A stretch of 64,000 bases of DNA from Vicinamibacteria bacterium (GCA_963668695.2 CAXXLQ010000004.1:3808001-3872000), one strand, 5' to 3'. Positions 2,428-13,839 are shown, numbered from the stretch's first letter. Numbers and translations: made by a program. Notes: generated by a model not told the origin, from the sequence alone.

Positions 2428-2565
2428 ACGCTCACCTTGCCGTCCGATACGGTCTGGTTTGCCGCCAGCCCGATCGGAACCCGCGAGCACCGGGGCCGGG
2501 ACCGGTCAGGGGGTACAGGCGTCACCGGTCGCCGAACGCACCGCTCGAGGGTCCGAAATCGCCTG

Positions 2566-3903
2566 CTACTGCGGGGGTTTCGGACGCGACCGGTACTTCT
2601 CGTAGAGCTGCAGGTGCCGGTTGTCGAGCGAGACCGGAACTCCGTTCACGAAGACGTGTTCCACCTCGGTGCGGATCTCGAGCGGGTCCCCGTTGACCAC
2701 GATCAGGTTCGCGACTTTCCCCTCCTCCAGGGTTCCGAAGTCGGCCTCCAGTCCGAAGAGCTGCGCGGGAACCAGGGTGATCGCGCGGATCGCGGCGTCC
2801 GCTGGCAGCCCGTAACCGACCGCGTGCCCTGCCTCATACGGCAGGAGCCGTGAGTTCGAGGACCCGAAGCTCGCGAAGGCCACCGTTACGCCCGCCGCGT
2901 GCAGTTCACCCGGGGTCGTGAAGGGCCGGTCGTAGGGATCGTCCTCCTCCCCGGGCAGCCTCTGGGTCGGCCCGAGAATCACCGGGACGGCGTTCTCGGC
3001 GAGAAGCTCCTTCACTTTCCAGGCTTCGTTTCCGCCGAGCAGGATCATCTTCACCCCCTGCTCCTTCGTGAACTCGACGGCGTGGCGGATCTCCCGAGCG
3101 CCCTGCGCCAGGATCAGCAGCGGCATTTCACCCCCGACGACCGGACCGAGGGCAGCGAGCCGGATGTCACGCTCCCGCGCATCGGCTTCGCCAGCGGCCG
3201 CGTAGCGGCGCGCCGCGTCCAGCACTGCCGCCAGTTCCGCCACCGCCCGGTCGTATTCCTCCTCGGCCTCGCGGAAGGGCCGCCGTCCGCCCCCGAACGT
3301 GCCCGGGTTGAACGTCCGCGTCGAGTAGGTCGGCCAGGTCAGGACCATCCCCGCGGACGCGTCGATATCCATCTCTTCCACGGTCCAGCCGTCGAGGTGG
3401 ACGATGGACGCCTGGCCGCTGATGCCGGCCCCACCGCCGCCGAAGCCTCCGAGCCGGCCCGGAGCCACCACCGCATGAGTAATGCCGTTCGCGCGCGCAA
3501 CCGGCAGGTGCTCACTCGAGGGATGGATCGCGGTCGCCGCCTTCAGATGCGGGTTCATCTCGCCCAGTTCGACGGTGTCCACCGTCGCGCTGACGGAGCC
3601 GATCTCGGTGAGGCCGAGCTGGCTCACCGAGTCCATCATGCCCGGATAAACGTCGAGCCCGGAGGCGTCCACCACCGTCGCTCCCGCCGGCGCCGAGATC
3701 TCGTCGCCGATCTCGACGATCCGGCCGTCCCGGATCAGAATGGATCCCGACTCGATGGGCGCCGCTCCCTCGACCAGGGTGTGGATTCGCGCGTTCTTGA
3801 TGAGCCAGGACTCTTCTTCCTGAGCCGTCGCCAGACCGCCCGCGAGTGCGAGCGCCAGCGGAACCGCGGCGAGCCGAAGCCCGCTCTTCCCAAGACCGGT
3901 CAT
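2566..3903 (-). CDS. Secreted amidohydrolase-family protein (N-terminal HxH degenerate)
   Basis: Signal peptide; IKNARIHT...PGMMDSVSQLG; GTLEEGKVANL; ATG overlaps upstream stop. Confidence 0.8.
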   Translation of the reverse strand: MTGLGKSGLRLAAVPLALALAGGLATAQEEESWLIKNARIHTLVEGAAPIESGSILIRDGRIVEIGDEISAPAGATVVDASGLDVYPGMMDSVSQLGLTEIGSVSATVDTVELGEMNPHLKAATAIHPSSEHLPVARANGITHAVVAPGRLGGFGGGGAGISGQASIVHLDGWTVEEMDIDASAGMVLTWPTYSTRTFNPGTFGGGRRPFREAEEEYDRAVAELAAVLDAARRYAAAGEADARERDIRLAALGPVVGGEMPLLILAQGAREIRHAVEFTKEQGVKMILLGGNEAWKVKELLAENAVPVILGPTQRLPGEEDDPYDRPFTTPGELHAAGVTVAFASFGSSNSRLLPYEAGHAVGYGLPADAAIRAITLVPAQLFGLEADFGTLEEGKVANLIVVNGDPLEIRTEVEHVFVNGVPVSLDNRHLQLYEKYRSRPKPPQ

Positions 3904-5303
3904 CGCCGGACTCCTTCCCGCGGTCCCCGCGGGCCGGGCCTGCCGGGGCCGGGCCTGCCGGGGCCGGGCCTGCCGGGGCCGCGCTCGGCGTCGTCCCCCT
4001 CGGACAGCTTCTCTTCGAGTTCGGCGCGTTCGGCGGCGGCACTCTCCCGCATCGCCAGATCCTGCTCGCGGCTGAAGAGCATCTCCCCATCCACGAAGGT
4101 CATCTGGTTCACCGCGTAGGTGCTCAGCGGATGGCGGTCGAAGACCGCCAGGTCCGCGTCCTTCCCCACCTCGATCGAACCGATCCGGTCCCCGACCCCG
4201 AGCTGAATCGCCGGGTTGATGGTGATCATGCGGAGCGCCTGTTCCTCGGTCATGCCGCCCCACTTCACGGTCTTGGCGGCCTCCTGATTCAGGTGCCGGG
4301 CTTCCTCCGCGCTGTCGGAGTTGATGGATACCAGAATCCCCCGTTCGGTCATGAGCGCCGCGTTGTAGGGAATGGCGTCGTAGGCCTCGACCTTGTAGCC
4401 CCACCAATCCGAAAACGTTGAAGCCCCTGCCCCGTGCGCCGCGATCTCGTTCGCCACCTTGTAGCCCTCGAGCACGTGCTGGAGCGTCGCGATCCGGAAC
4501 CCGAATTCCTCGGCGAGCCGCAGGAGCTGCAGGATCTCGTCCTGCCGGTAGCAGTGGGCATGCACGAGGCGCTCGCCCTCCAGAATCTCGACGAGCGGCT
4601 CGAGTTTCATGTCCCGCCGGGGCGGCAACACCCGCTCGCCGCGGGCCTTCGCCGCCTCGTAGTCGGCGAACTCCTGGCGGTAGGCCTCGGCGTCGGTGAA
4701 CGCCTGCCGGATCACGTCCTGGACCCCCATTCGGGTTGCCGGATAACGCCGCTCGACTCCCGCCGGCATGCCGCGGGACCGCTTCGGGTTCTCGCCGAGC
4801 GCGAACTTGATTCCCGGCGGAGCCCCCTCGAACACGAGCCCTGCGGCATCCGCTCCCCAGCGGTGCTTGATGACCACGTTCAGGCCGCCGATCGGGTTTG
4901 CGCTCCCGTGGAGGATGTTCGAAGTGGTCACCCCGCCCGCCAGCTCCCGGTAGATGTTGACGTCGTAGGGATCCACCACGTCACCGGTCCCGGTCATGGA
5001 GGAGACCGAGACGCTCCCCTCGTTGATGGACTCGGCGGCGATGTGCGAGTGGGCGTCGATGATGCCGGGCATCACGAACATCCCGTCGGCCTCGATCACC
5101 TCGGCCCCCGCCGGGACCTCGACGCTCGCCCCCACTTCCGCGATCTTCCCGTCCCGGATCAGGATCGCTCCCGGAGACAGGATCCCCTCGGTCACGGTGA
5201 GCACCGTCGCTCCCCGGATCACGGTGGTTGCCTCCTGAACGGGGGCGGCGGCAAGCGGCGCGGCGGCGAGCGCCGCCGTCAGAAAAAGACTCTTCAGTCG
5301 CAC
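3900..5303 (-). CDS. Secreted amidohydrolase-family protein (intact metal ligands)
   Basis: PGIIDAHSH, KFALGENPK, HAHCY, SINSD, GSIEVGKDADL. Confidence 0.9.
   Translation of the reverse strand: MRLKSLFLTAALAAAPLAAAPVQEATTVIRGATVLTVTEGILSPGAILIRDGKIAEVGASVEVPAGAEVIEADGMFVMPGIIDAHSHIAAESINEGSVSVSSMTGTGDVVDPYDVNIYRELAGGVTTSNILHGSANPIGGLNVVIKHRWGADAAGLVFEGAPPGIKFALGENPKRSRGMPAGVERRYPATRMGVQDVIRQAFTDAEAYRQEFADYEAAKARGERVLPPRRDMKLEPLVEILEGERLVHAHCYRQDEILQLLRLAEEFGFRIATLQHVLEGYKVANEIAAHGAGASTFSDWWGYKVEAYDAIPYNAALMTERGILVSINSDSAEEARHLNQEAAKTVKWGGMTEEQALRMITINPAIQLGVGDRIGSIEVGKDADLAVFDRHPLSTYAVNQMTFVDGEMLFSREQDLAMRESAAAERAELEEKLSEGDDAERGPGRPGPGRPGPGRPGPRGPREGVRR
3931..3981. repeat. 15-bp tandem repeat (3.4 copies) encoding PGRPG tail
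   Basis: gggccgggcctgccg x3 + gggccg. Confidence 0.9.
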
Positions 5304-5307
5304 TTCG

Positions 5308-6810
5308 TTACTCCTCGCTCCCGCTCGGGGCGGAGCGGCCCGCGGCCGAACGTTCGGGCTCGTCGTCTTCGGTCTCGGCTTCGTCCTCCGCGTCCGGGCG
5401 GTGAATCACTCCGTCCACAAACACCGTTTCGACCCTCGCCCCGTCCTCGAAAATGTCCCCGTCCGCGACTAGCAGGTTGGCGATCCGCCCTGTCTGGAGC
5501 GTCCCAACCCGGTCCGCCACCCCGAAGATCTCCGCCGGGGCCAGAGTGAGCGCGGTCAGCGCCGCCTCCCGGCCGAGGCCGCGCTCGACGGCCTTCCGGA
5601 CCGCCGCGATATCGCCGCCGGAACTCCCGGCGGATGCACCGCGCTCGCGCGGCCCTCCGCCCGCTTCCGGGCCCTCCCCCAGGTAGAAGGCGAAACGGAC
5701 GCCGGCCGCGGCGAGCGCTGCGGGGCCGGCTGGCGCCTGGTCGCGGAGGCGAAGGGTGCGCAGCGGAATCTCCGCTTCGGGGTCTGCCTGCGGATCGGCC
5801 TTCGGCCAATTCAGATCCACCAGGATGGGCACGCCGTGCTCCTTCAGGAACTGCGCGGATTCCCCTGCCTCGTGGCCCCCGTAGAGGACCGGGCGAATAC
5901 CGAACTCTTCCGCGAGCCCCACCATCCGGCGCACTTCCTTGTCGAGGCTCGCCGGCAGCAGCACCGGCTGGTCACCGGAAGCCGCCGCGGCGAGCGGGGC
6001 GAGGGTCCGGTCGTAACGCGGCCGCACGAGGCCCGCCGGATCCTCTTCGTACATGCGCCAAACCTCGCCGTAGTGCGAAGCGTCGAGGAAGAGCTGCCGC
6101 AGGTAGGCGATCACCCCCATCAGGGAACCGGGGAAGGAGCGGAAACCGCGCGTCCCGAGCCGGACCACCACCGCCACGTCCGGAGCGACCACCAGATCGC
6201 GTGAGTCGACTCCTTCGGGGCCGGCCAGGTTCAGCAAGGCTGCCCGGCCCGAGACGATCCCGTCCGGCGGCGCCGAGACCGCCGAGGTAAACCCGGTGCT
6301 CCGGCGCGCCGCGATCCGTTCGTCGCTCGCCCGCAGGTCGTCGGCGGCGAGTCGCCAGGAGAAGGTGTCGGGCCGGTCCTCGGGCCCCCGCGAAGGAGGC
6401 GGCGGCGATGGCGCGCCCGCGGGTGGCGCGCCCGCGCCTGCGGCGCGCGGCCCCCGGGCCGGACCCGCCGTCGAATCCCCGCCGAGGCCGAGATCGCTGA
6501 GCGCAGTGATGAAACCCGGATAGACGTGCTTCCCGGCCGCATCCATTCCGGCAGCCCCGGCCGGGACCTCGCCGCCCGCCTCGACCGAAACGATCAGCCC
6601 GTCCCGGATTACCACGGTGGCTCCCTCCAGGACGGTCCCGTCGCCGACGTGGACCATGCCCCCGGTGATAGCCCAGGCCCGCGGGCCCCGGTCGGCCACC
6701 TCCCGGGAGGAGAGCTGGGCGGCCGCGGTCGCCGGCCCTGCCGCGAAGAAGAGCACCGCCAGCGGTGCAAGCAGGCGGGAGGCGCGCCGCCGGAGGTTTC
6801 GTCTCGCCAT
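5308..6810 (-). CDS. Secreted amidohydrolase-family protein (HxH degenerate)
   Basis: AITGGMVHVGDG...YPGFITALSDLG; FPGSLMGVIAYLRQ; GTLQTGRIANL. Confidence 0.8.
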   Translation of the reverse strand: MARRNLRRRASRLLAPLAVLFFAAGPATAAAQLSSREVADRGPRAWAITGGMVHVGDGTVLEGATVVIRDGLIVSVEAGGEVPAGAAGMDAAGKHVYPGFITALSDLGLGGDSTAGPARGPRAAGAGAPPAGAPSPPPPSRGPEDRPDTFSWRLAADDLRASDERIAARRSTGFTSAVSAPPDGIVSGRAALLNLAGPEGVDSRDLVVAPDVAVVVRLGTRGFRSFPGSLMGVIAYLRQLFLDASHYGEVWRMYEEDPAGLVRPRYDRTLAPLAAAASGDQPVLLPASLDKEVRRMVGLAEEFGIRPVLYGGHEAGESAQFLKEHGVPILVDLNWPKADPQADPEAEIPLRTLRLRDQAPAGPAALAAAGVRFAFYLGEGPEAGGGPRERGASAGSSGGDIAAVRKAVERGLGREAALTALTLAPAEIFGVADRVGTLQTGRIANLLVADGDIFEDGARVETVFVDGVIHRPDAEDEAETEDDEPERSAAGRSAPSGSEE

Positions 6811-6843
6811 GGCGGGCGAGTCTGTCCGAGCGGCGGGTAGCGG

Positions 6844-7458
6844 TCAACCGGGGTGGGCCCCTTGCCGCACCGAACTCGGCAGACTGGGGCACGAAGCCGC
6901 CCTTTCTTTTCCAATCAGGGCCACGACTTCAGAAAGCCGCTCCAAGGGAACGCCCATCCGAGCGCGCTGCAACGCGGCCACGATGGCGTCAACCTGACCG
7001 GCTTGACCCAGCGCGGTCCTAACGGCGGGATGAAGCAGCAGATCCACGGTAGAAACGACCGCAGTACCCGGGAAACGCTCTGCGCAGATCCTCCGCGCCT
7101 TCTTCTCGTCCATCATGGCTGCGCGACCGTACGCCGCGGCATACGCGACGGTCGCCGCCTCCCCGTCGCCGAGGGTGTCCTGTGCACGCCCTTCGGCCAG
7201 AGATATCTGGATTGTGGCGCCCTTGCCGATCTCCACTACCCGGCACGCTCCCGTGCAAACGAGCGCCTCAAGACCTGTGATATCTCGGTGTCCCCGGTTT
7301 CGTCCGGCCTGTAGTTCGAACCGCACCGACTCGGTCACAACGGGCGGCGAGGGGAAGAGTCGGAAGATCTCCTCGGCTCGACCCGTCGCGTTCAGGTTGA
7401 TGATCGCACTGGTATCCGCGACGATCCTTCGCCACGACTCAGGCAGGGAGTGCAACAC
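6844..7458 (-). CDS. PIN-like domain protein (DUF3368-like), putative toxin/effector
   Basis: IVADTSAIIN, LGDGEAAT, MDEKKARR, STVDLL acidic PIN pattern; probable GTG start overlapping upstream gene end. Confidence 0.7.
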   Translation of the reverse strand: MLHSLPESWRRIVADTSAIINLNATGRAEEIFRLFPSPPVVTESVRFELQAGRNRGHRDITGLEALVCTGACRVVEIGKGATIQISLAEGRAQDTLGDGEAATVAYAAAYGRAAMMDEKKARRICAERFPGTAVVSTVDLLLHPAVRTALGQAGQVDAIVAALQRARMGVPLERLSEVVALIGKERAASCPSLPSSVRQGAHPG

Positions 7459-8623
7459 GCTCCGCAGCTTCGGCTTTCTCCTCCTCGGCGCCTTCCACAA
7501 GCTCGCGGACGGCTAACCGATCGAGCGCGAGCAGATCGGCGAGCTGGCCCTCGCTGTACAGATCGCGTTTCCACGCCTCTCTGACGAGGAGGCCGACCCG
7601 CGTCGGAACAATGCCCCCGCCGGAATCGGGAGTGCGCCCCTCGTCCGGCGGATGTCCGATCACGTCTTCGAACTGAGCATCTGTGATCCCGCCGTTGTCC
7701 TGAAACCAATCCCACGTCCCCTTCCTGACGACCCGCAGCTCCTCGAGGCGGCGCACCATCGCCTCGCGGGACACCGCGAACGAGTGCGCCAGCAGAATCA
7801 CATGGCGCCGCGTCAGATGGGACTGCCCGGCCGTCAGTTCACCAAACCGTTGGCGGACGGCCCGGCCAGGGGTCAGGAACGACCGCGCGAAAGCGGCCGC
7901 GTACTGTTCTTCGCGCGACCGCGAAATGTCCTGTTCCACCAGAAGTTCCGCTTCCTCCCGTGTCGTGATGAAGTGTCCGAGCTCGTGCGCGCCGGTCTGG
8001 GCAATACGGCCCCTTGGATGGTTTGCATTGAGCAGCACACAGGCGCCGGCGGCTTCGGTGTAAGCGAACAACCCGGAAATCGTGCTCACCAGCGGTCGCA
8101 AATAGACTCGCATTCCGACCTGCAACTCCAGGAACGTCACCATATCCAGAACCGGACCCGCCCCTAGCCCGAACCATGACCGCAGATCTTGGGCGTCCTC
8201 TTCCGCCTGCGCCGCGACATCGCCCGGAAGAATCTGCTTCTCCCGCGGATAGCGCTGCCTGCGCTGAATTCCGAGAACATTCTCCAGTTCCACTTCCGCA
8301 CTGACGAGCCGGCTTAGCAACTGCGCGGCGTCCTCCCTGGCCTCTTCGGAACTCTTCGGGAGCTTGCGGAATCGGGGCGCGAGGTCCAGGTGGACTGCCT
8401 CCCGCCGCAGGATCGCGTTTACGGAGACTCCGCACAGGTGTGCAAGCCTCTGGATCTCATCGCTCCGAATGCGACGTTTCCCCTGTTCGATAGCTACCAG
8501 CGTGGTTCGCGCGACCCGAATCCTCTCGGCGGCGTCGCTCTGGCGCAAACCACGCGCTTCCCGGATCGTTCGGAGTCGCCTGCCGATTTCCTGGTCCGAC
8601 AGTATCGGCGAGCCAATAGACAT
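7439..8623 (-). CDS. XRE-HTH fused to ImmA/IrrE (DUF955) Zn metallopeptidase
   Basis: N-terminal HTH (RLRTIREARGLRQSDAAERIRVARTTLVAIEQGKR); HExxH AHELGH; EQYAAAFARSFL; ATG overlaps upstream TGA (TGATG). Confidence 0.9.
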   Translation of the reverse strand: MSIGSPILSDQEIGRRLRTIREARGLRQSDAAERIRVARTTLVAIEQGKRRIRSDEIQRLAHLCGVSVNAILRREAVHLDLAPRFRKLPKSSEEAREDAAQLLSRLVSAEVELENVLGIQRRQRYPREKQILPGDVAAQAEEDAQDLRSWFGLGAGPVLDMVTFLELQVGMRVYLRPLVSTISGLFAYTEAAGACVLLNANHPRGRIAQTGAHELGHFITTREEAELLVEQDISRSREEQYAAAFARSFLTPGRAVRQRFGELTAGQSHLTRRHVILLAHSFAVSREAMVRRLEELRVVRKGTWDWFQDNGGITDAQFEDVIGHPPDEGRTPDSGGGIVPTRVGLLVREAWKRDLYSEGQLADLLALDRLAVRELVEGAEEEKAEAAERVALPA

Positions 8624-9978
8624 CAGTTCAAAGCTCCCCACTCTCGGATGAATGAGCGGCTGCCCAGCGACGCCAGGTAGTTCACCCACTCCTCTCGATG
8701 CTTCTCGAACATCTCACGAATACGCTTCTCTACTTCCTCTACCTCCAGTTCCAAAACAGGAGCGAGGCTTGCGGCATGAGCCCCAATCGTCTCGGTTTCC
8801 TCCGCGATCTCCGCCATTCGCCGCATATGCAATGTCCCCGCAATTGCGTACTCTCGATACCGTTCGTTGAGCTTCGTAAATCCGGGATCCACCGCCTCCT
8901 CTAGCGACTCCGCCGACATGTTCACGCAAACGTACGTTCCTCCCGGCTCATCGAGACCGGCCGCATGAACGCTGAGGCGTCTCAACATACATGCCGCGCA
9001 CACACCGCAGTGCCTCCACGAACCGGCGATGGAACTCCACCGACCGTCGCGCCAGCAGGACTTGGCGTCCTTCCATGCCTCAGTTTCCGCGAGGCGCGCG
9101 TACTCTGAGAGCGTCTCTCCCTTCGTAGCCCACAGACGAGGAAACCTGTATCGGACATCCGATCCCAGCAAGGCCTTCAGGAACGACTCCATCCGCCGCG
9201 TGAAGAGCGGGTGGCTCCGATAATCCTGATATGAATGCCCCACGGTTGCCAGTACAGGTCCGAGCACACCCTGTCCGCTTTCCGGACAGATTACGCGTGG
9301 CGAGTTTGTCAGATAGGCCGCAAGCCCAGAGATCAAAGCAAACTTGAACCCTCTACTCCGTCCGCTCGTTTCTCTGCGAAGCTTGTTAGCCGAAAGCGAG
9401 TAGGGAACCTTAATGAAAGGCGTCTTTTCCGAGTATTTGAAATGCGACCCTCGCTCAACCCGAACGAGAACCAGTTGTTCACCTAACCGATTCCTTTCGA
9501 TCCCGGACACGGCCAGGGAATCCAAGCCAGCACTGTATGGCAGACAGGCTCCCCTCGGTACTGAGAACTCTAGGTATCCACGTCTTGGCTCGGTCTGCTC
9601 TTCGCTCCTGGCGCAGAATGAGAACTCCCAAACGTCCCCCGTAAGGAACCCGAGTGCAGAACAGAGTGAACGGACTACGTCTGGAGCCTCCCAGCGCGCC
9701 GGATCGTGTACAGGAACGTGAACGCACAGGTGACGCGCCCAGCCAAGCGACGGGCGGCGACCGACAGAATCCGCGTATTCGACGGCGGCGCAAACTGCCA
9801 TCGCGTCATAAATCACGGCTTCCCACCTTGCCAGCGCGAAACGTCGCAGCGCCTCGATCGAAAACTTGAAGTCCTTTCGGTGCTGGAAGGCGATCCAGCC
9901 GCGCGGGGCTCGTCCGTCCTTCTCGAGAACTGCAACCCTAGTAAGCGGCAGCCGACCCGCTTTTCGCTTACCGCTCAC
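8623..9978 (-). CDS. QueC-like PP-loop enzyme of the QatC/Cap9 type (not the housekeeping preQ0 synthase)
   Basis: ~450 aa; YSAGLDS PP-loop, RSRGFKF, PESG, RSHP, TKGE, SCW, HCGVCAACMLRR Zn site; GTG start overlaps upstream TGA. Confidence 0.85.
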   Translation of the reverse strand: MSGKRKAGRLPLTRVAVLEKDGRAPRGWIAFQHRKDFKFSIEALRRFALARWEAVIYDAMAVCAAVEYADSVGRRPSLGWARHLCVHVPVHDPARWEAPDVVRSLCSALGFLTGDVWEFSFCARSEEQTEPRRGYLEFSVPRGACLPYSAGLDSLAVSGIERNRLGEQLVLVRVERGSHFKYSEKTPFIKVPYSLSANKLRRETSGRSRGFKFALISGLAAYLTNSPRVICPESGQGVLGPVLATVGHSYQDYRSHPLFTRRMESFLKALLGSDVRYRFPRLWATKGETLSEYARLAETEAWKDAKSCWRDGRWSSIAGSWRHCGVCAACMLRRLSVHAAGLDEPGGTYVCVNMSAESLEEAVDPGFTKLNERYREYAIAGTLHMRRMAEIAEETETIGAHAASLAPVLELEVEEVEKRIREMFEKHREEWVNYLASLGSRSFIREWGALN

Positions 9979-10499
9979 AACGGAGGTCCTTGCTCCAACC
10001 CCTTCCGCTGCGGCGGCCGGGATGGGTTTAGTGCCCCAGCGCCACCCCGGACTAGGCGCTTCGCAAGCGCAGAGCAATCGTACGCGCGGTGGATTTCACC
10101 TAAACGCCCAAGCGCACGGCCTGCTCTCACATCGTTCCGGTGTCGGAGGCAATGCTCTTCCATGCTCCACATGCGTCGGCGCAGGAAGTCGGCCAGAGCA
10201 GCTGCCACAGCCCGTTCACGCGTGGCCAGACTGGGGGGAGCGCCGTTCTGAAGTCGCTGAATGTGTTCGATCATGATGTTTCCGAGAGCGCTTGGGCCGC
10301 ACCCGCCGTCCACGTCAACGTCAGGTTGAACGAGCCAAGGGCGGAAGAGCGCCTTCGGAAGTTGGCTGCAATCCGTGGTCAGGGCGTAGTCCAGCGCCTC
10401 AACGTTCTCTACCAGAGGACGGGCGGCATTCTCAGCGCGCCTCAGGATTTCGCGCCACAGCTTGGACAGAGGCAGGCTACTGTGGGGGCCGTCACTCAT
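9975..10499 (-). CDS. Hypothetical 174-aa protein (N-terminus MSDGPH), first gene of the QueC-like cassette; positionally QatB-like
   Basis: ATG start; stop overlaps QueC-like start (GTGA); no recognisable domain. Confidence 0.7.
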   Translation of the reverse strand: MSDGPHSSLPLSKLWREILRRAENAARPLVENVEALDYALTTDCSQLPKALFRPWLVQPDVDVDGGCGPSALGNIMIEHIQRLQNGAPPSLATRERAVAAALADFLRRRMWSMEEHCLRHRNDVRAGRALGRLGEIHRAYDCSALAKRLVRGGAGALNPSRPPQRKGLEQGPPL

Positions 10500-10503
10500 G
10501 ATA

Positions 10504-10532
10504 TGTCAGCATATCACATATCGTCTCTGACA
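10504..10532 (-). promoter_or_regulatory. Extended -10 (TGaTATGCT) 8 nt before the ATG, within TGTCAG-N17-CTGACA inverted repeat; candidate leaderless promoter/operator of the cassette
   Basis: Minus strand reads ttgtcagagacgatatgtgatatgctgacatatcATG; no Shine-Dalgarno. Confidence 0.4.
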
Positions 10533-10771
10533 ATGTCGAATATGCCTTGGAAGCAGAGGATTGACTCCAGAGGCCGTTCAAGACATGCCCATCGGGACCC
10601 TGCAGCGAACCTCAGGAAGGGAGCCTGATGGAATGGCCAACCGAGTTCGGGGCAATGACACTGTCTGTTCCGCCGCCCTCCGGGCGGCGGTCCCGGCCGT
10701 CTCCGCCACCAACTCGCCCACAGCTCGGTCCTTGGCCCTCCCCTCCCCACGCGTAAGATTCCGGCCGCCTC

Positions 10772-12301
10772 GTGCCTCGTTTCTATCTGACCACCGCCAT
10801 CGACTACGTCAACTCGCCGCCGCACCTCGGCACGGCCTACGAGAAGATCACCGCCGACGTGATCGCGCGCTTCAAGCGGAGCGCGGGGTACGACACCCAC
10901 TTCCTGATGGGGGCCGACGAGCACTCCCTCAACGTGCGCCGGAAGGCTGAAGAACAGGGCCTCGATCCGCTGGACTACTGCGCCAAGATGGAGGACACCT
11001 TCCGCGCGGTCTGGGCGAAGCTCGACGTCTCCTACGACGAGTTCATCCGCACCACCGAGAAGCGCCACCACCTGGGGGTCCAGAAGCTGCTCGAGGCGAT
11101 TCGCGCGCGGGGCGGCATCTACGAGGGAACGTACGAGGGCTGGTACTGCGTCTCCTGCGAGGCCTTCAAACAGGAGAAGGATCTTGAAGACGGCACCTGC
11201 CCCCTCCACCGGGCAAAGCCGGACTGGATCTCCGAGAAGAACCACTTCTTCCGCCTCTCGGCGTACCGCGACCGGCTGCTCGAGCTCTACCGGGACCAGC
11301 CGAGCTTCATCGAGCCCGAGACCCGGCGGAACGAGCTGACGAACGTCCTCGAAGCGGGGCTCCTCGATCTTTCGGTCAGCCGGCCGAGCACCGGCTGGGG
11401 GATCCCGGTGCCTTTCGACGACGCCAGCGTGGTGTACGTCTGGTTCGACGCGCTCATGAACTATCTCTCGGCAACCGGTTACGGGACCGACGAGGAAGGC
11501 TGGGAGGAGCGCTGGCCCGCCGACCTCCACATCGTGGGCAAGGACATCACCCGCTTCCACGCCGTGATCTGGCCGGCCATGCTGATGGCGGCCGGGCTTC
11601 CCATCCCCCGGCAGGTCTTCGGGCATGGCTTCGTGAACTTCCAGGGAGAGCGGATGAGCAAGTCGCTCGGAACGGCAGTGGACCCGCTCGAAGCGAGCGA
11701 CCACTTCGGCCCCGACCCGCTCAGACTCTTCCTGGTCCGCGAAGTCCAGTACGGACAGGACGGTGACTTCTCCTGGGATCGTTTCGAGGCGCGTTACGAC
11801 TCGGATCTCGCCAACGCGCTCGGGAACCTGGTCAGCCGCATCACCTCGATGGCCGCCCGCTATCGCGATGGCCGGCTGGCCGCTTCGGCCCGCTCGGCTC
11901 TTCCCGAAATCTCGACCCGGGCGGTCGCCGACTACCGCGAGGCGATGGAGGGACTTCGTCTTCACGACGGGGCGGCCGCCGCCTTCCGGATCGTGGGGGC
12001 GGTCAACGAATTCCTGACCTTGCGCGCTCCCTGGAAGCTCGCCAAGGATCCGGACGCCGGAGAGGCGCTCGACGAAGCTCTCTACGAAGCCGCGGAGGCA
12101 ACCCGGATCGCCGCCGTCCTTCTCCATCCGGTCATGCCGAAGTCCACCGCTCGCATTCTTGAACGCTTGGGCGGCGCGTCCGCCGATCCGATCCGCTTCG
12201 ACGAGCACGCCGTCTTTCAGGGAGCCCGGGTCCTCGCCACGCAGGCGGGGGCACCCCTCTGGCCGCGGCTCTCCACCCGGCGATCAGGAAACCGGGGGTA
12301 A
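10772..12301 (+). CDS. metG: Methionine--tRNA ligase (short form)
   Basis: FYLTTAIDYVNSPPHLG, YCVSCE, VYVWFDAL, GKDI, RMSKS. Confidence 0.95.
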   Translation: MPRFYLTTAIDYVNSPPHLGTAYEKITADVIARFKRSAGYDTHFLMGADEHSLNVRRKAEEQGLDPLDYCAKMEDTFRAVWAKLDVSYDEFIRTTEKRHHLGVQKLLEAIRARGGIYEGTYEGWYCVSCEAFKQEKDLEDGTCPLHRAKPDWISEKNHFFRLSAYRDRLLELYRDQPSFIEPETRRNELTNVLEAGLLDLSVSRPSTGWGIPVPFDDASVVYVWFDALMNYLSATGYGTDEEGWEERWPADLHIVGKDITRFHAVIWPAMLMAAGLPIPRQVFGHGFVNFQGERMSKSLGTAVDPLEASDHFGPDPLRLFLVREVQYGQDGDFSWDRFEARYDSDLANALGNLVSRITSMAARYRDGRLAASARSALPEISTRAVADYREAMEGLRLHDGAAAAFRIVGAVNEFLTLRAPWKLAKDPDAGEALDEALYEAAEATRIAAVLLHPVMPKSTARILERLGGASADPIRFDEHAVFQGARVLATQAGAPLWPRLSTRRSGNRG

Positions 12302-12540: not shown

Positions 12541-12579
12541 AGCGGGCAGGCCACGGCTCGCGGCGCCTCGGGAGTGGCG

Positions 12580-13839
12580 ATGACCTCCAGCGCCGCCAAT
12601 CCCTTCTCGCGGAACTGGTTGATGGGGTTCCGGGCGGACCTGATCTGGATCATCCTCTCGGCCGGCATCGGTTGGGCCTACCTGGCGCTCATCCTCGGGG
12701 TGGGCGCCGGGCTGGACAACCCGCTCCGGGACGCCTTCGCCACCCTGCGGGTCGGGGACTTCGCCCTCCCGGTGAGCCTGGGACTGGTAGTGGTCACGAG
12801 TTGGGCGGTGCTGCTCGACGCGCCGCACCTGTTCGCCACCCTGGCCCGCACGGTGCTGGATCCCGAGGAATGGCGCCTTCGTGGCGGGGTGCTGCTGGCT
12901 TCGTTCGGCTTCTTCCTGCTTGGCCCGGCCCTCATCCTGGCCCCCCGGCTGCTGGCTTCCGCCGGCGTCCTCCCGTCCGGCTGGCAAACCGCCGGAAGTG
13001 TCGTCTTCCTGGTCTTCTTCCGCCTGTGGGCGTACTACCACGTGGTTCGCCAGCACTGGGGGTTCTTGCGGCTCTACGCCCGCCGGAATCCGGCGGCGGA
13101 GGACGAGTTCGAGTTCCGTGCGGATCGGATCGTCTTCCCGATCGTCTTCTACCTGCCGATCGGGTGGTTCCTGACGGCTTCCTGGTACGCGGAGAGCGGG
13201 CTGCCGGAACTGGGGTTCGCCACGGAGGTGGGCGGCAGCACTCTCGGGTCCTGGCTCCACCTCCCGATCGGGTCGCTCTGGCTCCTGACCGTGATCGGCT
13301 ACGCCGCCTTCCAGTGGCGCCGCTACCTGCGGGGCAAGCCAAGGAATCTCCCCAAGCTGCTCCTGCTCGCCGCCACCGTGCCGCTCCACGCCGCGGCGTT
13401 TTCAAACCCGCTTCTCGTCCTCTTCGTGGTGCCGCTGGTCACCGCCGGCCACAACCTCCAGTACCACCGGTTCGTCTGGGACTATGCCAAGCGGCGCTAC
13501 CGCGCGGGACGGAGCGCCGCTGCCTTCTCGTTCCGTAGTCCGGCGCTCTACTTCGCGCTCGGGCTGGTGTTCACCTTCCTCGCTTACCGGGGACCCCTGG
13601 TCCACTCGATGAGCGGGATGCTCTCCGGGCTGCTCAACGAGGTGCTGCTGCCCCTGGCAGGTCTGGTGGCCGGGGCTCCGGGTGACGGAGGGGGCGCCTT
13701 GGGAGCCGAGGTGGTAGCGGCTTCACTCCTCGGCTGGGCAATGCAGCACTACTACCTCGACGCCCGCATTTGGCGGGTCTCGAAGGACGAACGTCTGCGG
13801 AAGGTGCTCGATTCGCCCGTCTCTGCGGCCCATTCCTGA
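12580..13839 (+). CDS. Integral membrane protein with His motifs, function unknown
   Basis: Multiple TM segments; PHLFAT, YHVVRQHWG, HNLQYH, QHYYLDARIWR. Confidence 0.75.
   Translation: MTSSAANPFSRNWLMGFRADLIWIILSAGIGWAYLALILGVGAGLDNPLRDAFATLRVGDFALPVSLGLVVVTSWAVLLDAPHLFATLARTVLDPEEWRLRGGVLLASFGFFLLGPALILAPRLLASAGVLPSGWQTAGSVVFLVFFRLWAYYHVVRQHWGFLRLYARRNPAAEDEFEFRADRIVFPIVFYLPIGWFLTASWYAESGLPELGFATEVGGSTLGSWLHLPIGSLWLLTVIGYAAFQWRRYLRGKPRNLPKLLLLAATVPLHAAAFSNPLLVLFVVPLVTAGHNLQYHRFVWDYAKRRYRAGRSAAAFSFRSPALYFALGLVFTFLAYRGPLVHSMSGMLSGLLNEVLLPLAGLVAGAPGDGGGALGAEVVAASLLGWAMQHYYLDARIWRVSKDERLRKVLDSPVSAAHS

Follow-up and report, generated by a model that had tools for sequence, protein, structure and literature searches.

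The stretch of DNA analysed here, called the window, covers 64,000 nucleotides from a Vicinamibacteria bacterium (GCA_963668695.2 CAXXLQ010000004.1:3808001-3872000). At positions 6844-10499, on the minus strand, it carries four co-directional genes, g1 to g4, whose stop and start codons overlap, as an earlier reading made by a model from the sequence alone (the sequence-only reading) had described. We lean, though not strongly, toward the view that these genes form an anti-phage module related to Qat, with a QatBC-like pair for modification, g1 and g2, that feeds or accompanies a Rosmer-type protease/PIN toxin-antitoxin effector, g3 and g4. The four genes are as follows.

10499 to 9975, minus strand: g1, 174 amino acids, all-helical; invariant tail MSDGPHSSLPLSKLW at the N-terminus, conserved G-L-[DE]-x-G-P-x-L at the C-terminus
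9978 to 8623, minus strand: g2, GTG start, 451 amino acids, overlapping the g1 stop (GTGA); a QueC-family PP-loop enzyme with QatC-type N- and C-terminal extensions
8623 to 7439, minus strand: g3, ATG start, 394 amino acids, overlapping the g2 stop (TGATG); an XRE-type helix-turn-helix (HTH) domain (residues ~12-70), an M78/ImmA-IrrE zinc peptidase domain (HELGH at ~222-226) and a C-terminal region
7458 to 6844, minus strand: g4, most likely starting at GTG 7458, ~204 amino acids, overlapping g3 by 20 nucleotides; a PIN-fold protein with a C-terminal helical extension

The start codon of g4 is uncertain, the alternatives to GTG 7458 being TTG 7455 and TTG 7500.

A scan of 185,579 species genomes with g2 returned 353 relatives. 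Gene order and upstream regions were counted in the best 80 of these, and exceptions are possible among the other 273. The order g1-g2-g3-g4 was kept in all 80 loci as far as the contigs reach: g1 lay upstream of g2 in 79, g3 followed g2 in 79 and g4 was present in 76, every miss being a contig end (the single locus without g1 has 6 bases of sequence upstream). Overlaps of 4 nucleotides between the genes are also annotated in two plasmid records. The carriers belong to the Alpha-, Beta- and Gammaproteobacteria, Gemmatimonadota, Acidobacteriota, Nitrospinota and Geomonas. Because the same order recurs in these 80 relatives, the four-gene block is more than a chance neighbourhood, and the two gene pairs, which the sequence-only reading had placed in one operon, do co-occur in other genomes.

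The g2 protein contains a PP-loop (S149-A-G-L-D-S154), the motifs Y250-Q-D252, H256-P257 and T285-K286, and a zinc motif (C308...C324-G-x-C327-x-x-C330). Across 20 homologues S149, G151, D153, S154, C308, C324, C327 and C330 were invariant, and D252, R254, H256 and P257 likewise. The protein matched the QatC models of PADLOC (2.9e-28) and NCBIfam (7.4e-30) and aligned to the solved QatC structure 9vlk (2e-13; 8.9e-26 with the family profile, over positions 55-362) and also to 9zee. On inspection against the motif list of PMC13329287, it carries the QatC-type motifs DxWxxxF, RxRxxxF, ExG, HP and PxxxxTK. These results agree with the call of a QueC-like protein made from the sequence alone. Its companion statement, that QueC-like proteins of ~450 amino acids occur both in Qat and, as Cap9, in the type IV cyclic oligonucleotide-based antiphage signaling system (CBASS), held for QatC and failed for Cap9, whose median length is ~185 amino acids (PMC13329287).

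The score of g2 fell below the NCBIfam QatC equivalog cut-off (NF041925; 104.1 bits against 280) and below both QueC cut-offs (Pfam, 18.9 bits against 22; TIGR00364, 16.1 bits against 150.3). A true qatABCD operon from a genome of the same order served as a positive control and passed all NCBIfam cut-offs (QatB 141.2, cut-off 100; QatC 340.1, cut-off 280; QatD 314, cut-off 230), which indicates that the models work and that g1 and g2 lie outside them. Housekeeping QueC, the identity that the sequence-only reading had set against its own proposal, was tried for g2 and rejected on the TIGR00364 score, on the absence of g2 from all 15 congeners and on the lack of any QueE found in the genome.

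One departure of g2 from QatC lies in the nucleobase pocket. In a HMMER alignment with an overall E value of only 0.04, the family profile 'aYPDyRnHP' is in register with 'gYPDCRd' of QueC 2pg3; at the Y-x-D position of g2, QatC reads 'TRTTHP'. The invariant T278/T280 of QatC have taken the place of the Tyr/Asp pair with which QueC and Cap9 recognise the nucleobase (PMC13279940). Since Y-x-D aligns with the YPDC of QueC, where QatC has TRTT, g2 appears to be a QatC-shaped enzyme that has kept the ancestral 7-deazaguanine pocket. Judged by its residues, then, g2 retains a Cap9/QueC-like nucleobase pocket that QatC has lost.

The small protein encoded by g1 had no match in Pfam, PADLOC, NCBIfam or PHROGs (PADLOC and NCBIfam at E<=0.1), and its AlphaFold2 (AF2) model is helical throughout (pLDDT 86.6). 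Homologues are 19-35% identical overall, yet their first 16 residues are nearly invariant, following the pattern M-[ST]-D-G-P-[HY]-[RK]-[ST]-L-x-[ML]-x-x-x-W-[KR]. The family has 938 members at E<=0.001 among 1.84 billion representatives of 50% identity clusters; the motif M-[ST]-D-G-P is present in 145 of the 150 best representatives and stands exactly at residue 1 in 137. The tails of QatB (MGTS...P16, W18) and of the type IV CBASS CD-NTase (MGGS) enter the active site of a QueC-family enzyme (PMC13279940; 10.1101/2025.04.06.647259), and the invariant tail of g1 has the same pattern.

A g1-g2 complex was predicted with an ipSAE of 0.86 (runs of 0.85, 0.89 and 0.86), whereas the best of three controls scored 0.00; the runs shared at least 63% of their contacts, and the pLDDT of the partner was at least 73. 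In the predicted interface, loop 244-251 of g2, which holds Y-x-D, and its C-terminal helices 372-404 meet the g1 helices that bear the invariant E115, H116 and R119, and residues 6-12 of the g1 tail lie on the invariant W80/R82 and T113-G-D-x-W117 of g2. In crystal structures QatB is bound through the equivalent loop and C-terminal helices of QatC (PMC13279940). By this model g1 is predicted to bind g2 as QatB binds QatC, and we regard g1 as a putative functional counterpart of QatB, being the partner and a candidate substrate of g2.

At the C-terminus of g1 (9975-10010), the codons for a conserved G-[LIV]-D-[DE]-G-[PV]-x-L are GA-rich and stand ~10-20 nucleotides 5' of the g2 start; the conservation of this motif may partly be that of the ribosome-binding site of g2 and not of protein function. 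We also noticed, in a genome of the same order, an intermediate QatC-like gene (locus L085, G029:C24:284193-288137, positions 588-2625; 181 bits against the cut-off of 280). Its upstream partner, of 260 amino acids, begins MGHIRLQSLPRTRKW, with Gly2, and has the SLPxxRxW tail motif as in g1; an unknown protein of 255 amino acids and a ParB_N-like open reading frame (ORF) follow the QatC-like gene. This locus may be yet another Qat-like variant. When g1 was compared with this partner by hhalign, the SLPxxRxW tail alone was aligned, at a probability of 0.9%, which is a lead and not evidence.

The g3 protein is the most conserved of the four (50-65% identity) and exceeded the Pfam cut-offs for HTH_31 (49 bits, cut-off 27) and Peptidase_M78 (45.5 bits, cut-off 22). 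Its best PADLOC match was RmrA (9e-24), with weaker matches to capP (1.4e-13) and capH (3.6e-7), in keeping with the HTH-zinc-peptidase of RosmerTA type proposed in the sequence-only reading. For the adjacent g4, the Pfam PIN match was marginal (0.022; 15.8 bits, cut-off 23.6), PADLOC matched PDC-S70 (8.9e-9) and no RmrT model, and PHROGs gave no match. The PIN assignment, also made earlier, was strengthened by the AF2 model of g4 (pLDDT 94.8), for which the top Foldseek matches were all VapC PIN toxins at probability 1.00 (Shigella, Pyrococcus and Rickettsia; target-normalised TM 0.6-0.69). The acidic residues D15, E48, D98/E100 and D117 were conserved in at least 76 of 77 sequences, and D15, E48, D98 and D117 were invariant in 39 sequences. 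In the NetFlax network, PIN-like toxins are among the partners of those ImmA/Rosmer antitoxins that have an N-terminal HTH (PMC10440598). We regard g3 as a putative autorepressor and antitoxin, and g4 as a putative toxin and effector nuclease.

Upstream of g1 lie two elements of a conserved control region.

10528 to 10538, minus strand: palindromic operator CGACATTGTCA, family consensus TTGACAwTGTCAG, the first six bases forming a -35-like hexamer
10504 to 10509, minus strand: downstream half-site CTGACA, 30 nucleotides after the palindrome and 5 nucleotides before the g1 ATG

Among the 80 upstream regions, GACANTGTC was present in 77, embedded in TTGACANTGTCA with its -35-like hexamer in 71, and a TGACA half-site followed the palindrome in 73, at 31 nucleotides in 65 and at 30 nucleotides in 6. 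Most homologous loci read CTGACATGGAGA...ATG, a GGAG ribosome-binding site included. A sigma-70 consensus scan of 6600-10900 found no promoter, and the promoter reading is drawn from the conserved TTGACA hexamer in homologous loci. The same promoter-operator layout stands directly upstream of g3 at loci where g1 and g2 are missing (L096, L098 and L099, and the congener G008). Because of this layout, and because g3 is the most conserved protein, the operator is probably the target of the g3 HTH, which would bind the palindrome, TTGACATTGTCAG. A second operator-like site, TGACACTGTCT at 10656-10666, differs by one mismatch from TGACANTGTCA and lies ~125 nucleotides upstream of the main operator, between the divergent metG and g1; in 8 of 100 shuffles, at least two operator matches turned up by chance.

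An operator over the -35-like hexamer and the likely transcription start also suits a different role for g3, which we think quite unlikely: that of a CapH/CapP-like switch and not of an antitoxin. Such a switch would de-repress the operon on DNA damage or infection, with g4 and g1-g2 as induced effectors. The capP and capH matches of g3 point in this direction, and ImmA/ImmR and IrrE/DdrO work in this manner (PMC10440598; PMC12828697). Yet the RmrA models outscore capP and capH, and an unrestrained PIN nuclease behind a leaky promoter would be costly. In addition, g4 accompanies g3, often overlapping it as in a toxin-antitoxin pair, in 76 of the 80 loci (misses being contig ends) and in every carrier of a sample seeded with g3.

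This g3-seeded sample covered 401 genomes of the phylum and contained 14 carriers besides the genome studied here. The g4 gene lay 3' of g3 in all 14. Upstream of g3, a full g2 was found in four loci (two of them only 28% identical) and g2 remnants in three, and no g2 lay within 1.5 kb in the other seven. At one locus (L100, G298:C1:4287406-4291545; ~1233-1475, with g3 on the plus strand), an ORF of 80 amino acids directly behind the operator is a fusion that begins like g1 (MSDGTLHPEH...) and ends with the final ~40 residues of g2, and intact g3-g4 follow. We read this ORF as a deletion scar, which indicates that g1-g2 can be lost; two more loci (L101 and L102) retain a partial g2. Since g4 is always with g3 while g1-g2 is often missing, g3-g4 appears to be an autonomous and persistent pair that resembles a toxin-antitoxin system. 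Since this pair persists without g1-g2, the latter looks like an optional extra, whose loss the cell survives, and seems not to be needed to restrain the PIN protein. The term hybrid, used in the sequence-only reading, is therefore apt, with a dependence that runs one way. These data fit g1-g2 either as a sensor or modifier upstream of the g3-g4 pair or as an independent effector, and it is by inference that we make the PIN protein g4 the effector of the QueC-like pair.

The same data give some room to an explanation that we consider possible but unlikely, namely that two independent systems share one promoter, the QatBC-like pair restricting phages alone and the g3-g4 toxin-antitoxin providing regulation and addiction and so retaining the cassette. 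Against some phages QatB and QatC need no other component (PMC13279940), L096, L098, L099 and G008 carry g3-g4 by itself behind the same operator, and g1-g2 decays while g3-g4 persists, as in the L100 fusion and the partial g2 genes of L101 and L102. Independence is harder to reconcile with the gene order in the best 80 of the 353 relatives, in which g3 directly follows g1-g2 wherever the contig reaches that far (79 of 80, the miss being a contig end), with the single operator and promoter before g1, and with the start/stop overlaps that link all four genes.

If, as we prefer, the modification pair is coupled to the protease/PIN effector, the following sequence of events can be proposed. In complex with g1, g2 would act as an ATP-dependent ligase of the QueC family. 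By analogy with Cap9 and QatC, it would use ATP to activate 7-deazaguanine carboxylate (CDG), which would be joined to the exposed N-terminus of g1, Ser2, once Met1 had been removed. Meanwhile g3, seated on the operator over the promoter, would keep expression of the operon low and would hold the PIN nuclease g4 in check, as in RosmerTA. An infection cue, which the g1-g2 complex would probably sense or its product would probably provide, would switch on the M78 peptidase. This enzyme would then remove the repressor/antitoxin, and the freed g4 would cut RNA and abort the infection.

Several observations weigh against this coupled module. The case for defence, toxicity and modification is computational. 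Kinship of g1 with QatB was not detectable: the NCBIfam QatB model (NF041924, cut-off 100 bits) gave no match, hhalign against a true QatB gave a probability of 0.2%, Foldseek against the PDB gave no match at E<=0.001, and the top-scoring of 48,161 chains in VIA-align was a stressosome helical domain (Z of 7.0, within helical noise), with QatB not among the matches. (A search of PDB sequences with the g1 profile also returned no QatB, the best match, at 0.038, being a designed protein.) The g1 tail is without the Gly2 that is essential in QatB and the CD-NTase (PMC13279940), and residues 1-5 were not placed with confidence in the predicted complex. Of 80 solved complexes, 58 reach the mark used for complex prediction, as do 2 of 110 mismatched pairs, counts that hold only roughly here because the g1-g2 prediction was run on alignments made for this analysis; QatBC complexes are already solved, so the pass could also partly reflect likeness to them. 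This copy of g1 is ~13-17 residues shorter than its homologues in a low-confidence loop and is without the GGAG ribosome-binding site (10497-10540); its expression may be weak or leaderless. The g3-g4 pair occurs without g1-g2 in 7 of the 14 g3-seeded loci and in the congener G008, so the two modules need not act together. Finally, neither a canonical QueC nor a QueE was found in this genome (completeness 91.7%; three QueE models, which match in 9-10 of 14 control genomes; QueF not searched for), and among five other carriers a canonical QueC exceeded the cut-off in two, with QueE clear in one and plausible in a second. The proposed substrate CDG may therefore be unavailable in some carriers.

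What the genome does contain is a Tgt gene (C4:265776-266873, 413 bits), its only one and 3.5 Mb from the cassette, and a PTPS/QueD-like gene (C4:1162536-1162886), a combination that, without QueC or QueE, suggests a salvager of queuosine precursors. Within the window no queuosine gene was found, as had been claimed earlier, QueF again not having been searched for. Three readings of the substrate remain: that it is not CDG, that the cassette is idle in such hosts, or that the substrate comes from the invader. In a very unlikely variant, the cassette would be a metabolite-gated toxin-antitoxin switch that senses phage 7-deazaguanine metabolism. This variant is suggested by the CDG-recognition motif kept in g2, together with the apparent lack of QueE and QueC in this host and at least one other carrier. 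CDG would come only from a phage with 7-deazaguanine DNA and its own folE/queD/queE; g2 would tag the N-terminus of g1, and g1, once tagged, would set off the M78 peptidase of g3 and so free the PIN nuclease.

The anti-phage module that we favour is set in a context of mobile and defence genes. The g2 gene occurs on 35 plasmid records, of which 14 are predicted to be conjugative, 7 mobilizable and 14 non-mobilizable; tblastn gave no g2 match in 50,697 phage records, and no g2 relative was found on IMG/VR viral contigs. On a Pannonibacter plasmid the neighbours are a DUF262 protein, a RelE/ParE pair, an AAA ATPase, an Eco57I-type methylase and a PLD-family protein, and on pAoF64/95 genes for a Lit-family exclusion protein and for a DUF3800 protein stand next to the cassette. 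Among the 138 nearest flanking ORFs of the 80 loci, picked by a crude longest-ORF rule and counted without a background rate, the most frequent matches were SoFic/Fic (8), mad3 (7), HipA (6), AAA_21 (6), AbiEi families (6 and 4), GajA (4), ArdC (4), resolvase (3) and integrase (2). The neighbours of the cassette are often defence or toxin-antitoxin genes.

Residence on 35 plasmids would also suit a plasmid or island addiction module, or a metabolic or regulatory operon, without a phage role, in which g2 makes or salvages a 7-deazaguanine compound. The PGAP label of g2 homologues in two plasmid records, 7-cyano-7-deazaguanine synthase, and a genome with Tgt and no canonical QueC found would fit a metabolic role. 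We nevertheless hold this explanation to be very unlikely. The g2 score is far from the QueC cut-off of TIGR00364 (16.1 against 150.3 bits), the protein lacks YxQxHxxE and VPxRN on inspection against the motif list of PMC13329287, and QatC fails to complement a queC deletion (PMC13329287). No QueE was found in the genome to supply substrate, g2 is absent from 15 of 15 congeners, and the neighbours are defence genes.

Comparison within the genus delimits the cassette as an insertion.

6859 to 10744, no strand assigned: inserted accessory segment, 3.9 kb, low GC; extent determined against the congener G009, in which the site is empty

In G009 the sequences corresponding to window positions 2565-6858 and 10745-12301 are contiguous, with ~25 bp between them, and the amidohydrolase gene adjoins metG, which places the insertion at 6859-10744. 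At the same site G004 has a DRT1 fragment cut by Mutator-family transposase genes and a 1437-amino-acid Ig/Calx-beta protein. G008 has STAND-like NTPase ORFs (AAA_16/TPR), a HicB-like gene, and homologues of g3 and g4 with 69% and 59% amino-acid identity, g1 and g2 being absent there. The amidohydrolase|metG junction (6859 and 10744; L092, L093 and L094) is a variable hotspot in the genus. Apart from its absence from the 15 same-genus genomes, g2 was represented in 41 related genomes by three distant paralogues only. The cassette is horizontally acquired, accessory and mobile.

The flanks named in the sequence-only reading were found, namely metG (tRNA-synt_1g, 1.3e-102) and three Amidohydro_1/3 genes. 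Its claim that the first two genes are AT-rich stood for g2, since the GC fraction is 0.56-0.61 over 8250-9750 (g2 and the start of g3) against 0.68-0.77 in the flanks, and was weaker for g1, which is only mildly lower at 0.64. Downstream of metG, an ORF of 421 amino acids (12574-13839, plus strand) has a hydrophobic, membrane-like look and no Pfam match at 1e-5.

Two points are open in work on Qat, the reaction of QatC and the route from QatB to restriction (PMC13279940). The sister family described here bears on both, through its canonical Tyr/Asp pocket and through an explicit output, a protease-controlled PIN nuclease. Because g2 has kept this pocket, Cap9-like deazaguanylation is directly testable by intact-mass spectrometry. 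The family is widespread (353 species-level genomes for g2, 938 g1 clusters at 50% identity and 35 plasmid records), and the pipeline label '7-cyano-7-deazaguanine synthase', with hypothetical proteins beside it, wrongly places what is probably an immune gene in tRNA modification. That g1-g2 is frequently lost and g3-g4 kept makes a natural experiment on the assembly and decay of defence sensor and effector modules.

In the literature we found no paper describing the cassette, although the supplementary neighbourhood table of PMC13329287 could list M78/HTH neighbours of its 'Cluster 2'. None was found that joins QueC with RosmerTA, and the combination of QueC-like, PIN and defence returned only Qat papers and unrelated phage genomes. 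The available text of the three QatBC structure papers and of the QueC-family survey nowhere mentions partners of the peptidase, helix-turn-helix or PIN-nuclease kind. No single system in PADLOC-DB v2 corresponds to the cassette, in line with the sequence-only reading, which had recognised no named system in it. That reading had also described a hybrid without QatA, QatD or a CD-NTase, and none of these was matched among the four cassette proteins.

The nearest known system is QatABCD, with its QatB-QatC core (PMC13279940, PMC13376578, PMC13639016). Like QatC, g2 has ~450 amino acids, the extensions, the PP-loop and the zinc cysteines; a helical partner gene with a conserved N-terminal tail lies immediately upstream of the enzyme gene, and a 1:1 interface is predicted through the enzyme's active-site loop and C-terminal helices. 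The cassette differs from QatABCD in that g2 reaches 104 bits against the cut-off of 280, whereas the QatC control of the same order reaches 340, and in having Y-x-D in place of the invariant T-x-T of QatC. The g1 proteins are shorter (174-190 amino acids against ~265 for QatB), start with MSDGPH instead of MGTS and are not detectable as QatB. Neither QatA (KAP NTPase) nor QatD (TatD nuclease) was matched among the four proteins, and an HTH-M78 peptidase and a PIN nuclease are present instead.

With type IV CBASS (10.1101/2025.04.06.647259), the cassette shares the Tyr/Asp nucleobase motif of Cap9, kept in g2, and a partner whose extreme N-terminus is conserved, with removal of Met1 expected. 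However, no CD-NTase, Cap10 (TGT-like) or Cap11 was found among the four proteins; Cap9 is a minimal QueC of ~185 amino acids, whereas g2 has QatC-type extensions; and the acceptor would be Ser2 in g1 but is Gly2 in the CD-NTase. RosmerTA (PMC10440598) resembles the second half of the cassette. The design of g3 is that of RmrA, a toxin-like g4 is adjacent and overlapping, g3-g4 is also found as a two-gene unit, and PIN-like partners have been described (PMC10440598). Unlike RosmerTA, g3-g4 here lies downstream of two extra genes in one operon, and g4 matches PDC-S70 models and not RmrT.

CapH/CapP, ImmR/ImmA and DdrO/IrrE likewise combine an XRE-type HTH repressor with an M78 protease, govern operons of defence or of mobile elements, and have a palindromic operator over the promoter, but in the cassette the repressor and the protease are one polypeptide, g3, whose matches to this group are weaker than to RmrA. 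The VapC PIN toxins share the fold of g4 and its acidic D15, E48, D98 and D117; g4 has ~70 extra C-terminal helical residues, and its partner is of protease type and not a VapB-type antitoxin. Taken together, these comparisons indicate that the cassette is Qat-related and belongs neither to QatABCD nor to type IV CBASS nor to plain RosmerTA.

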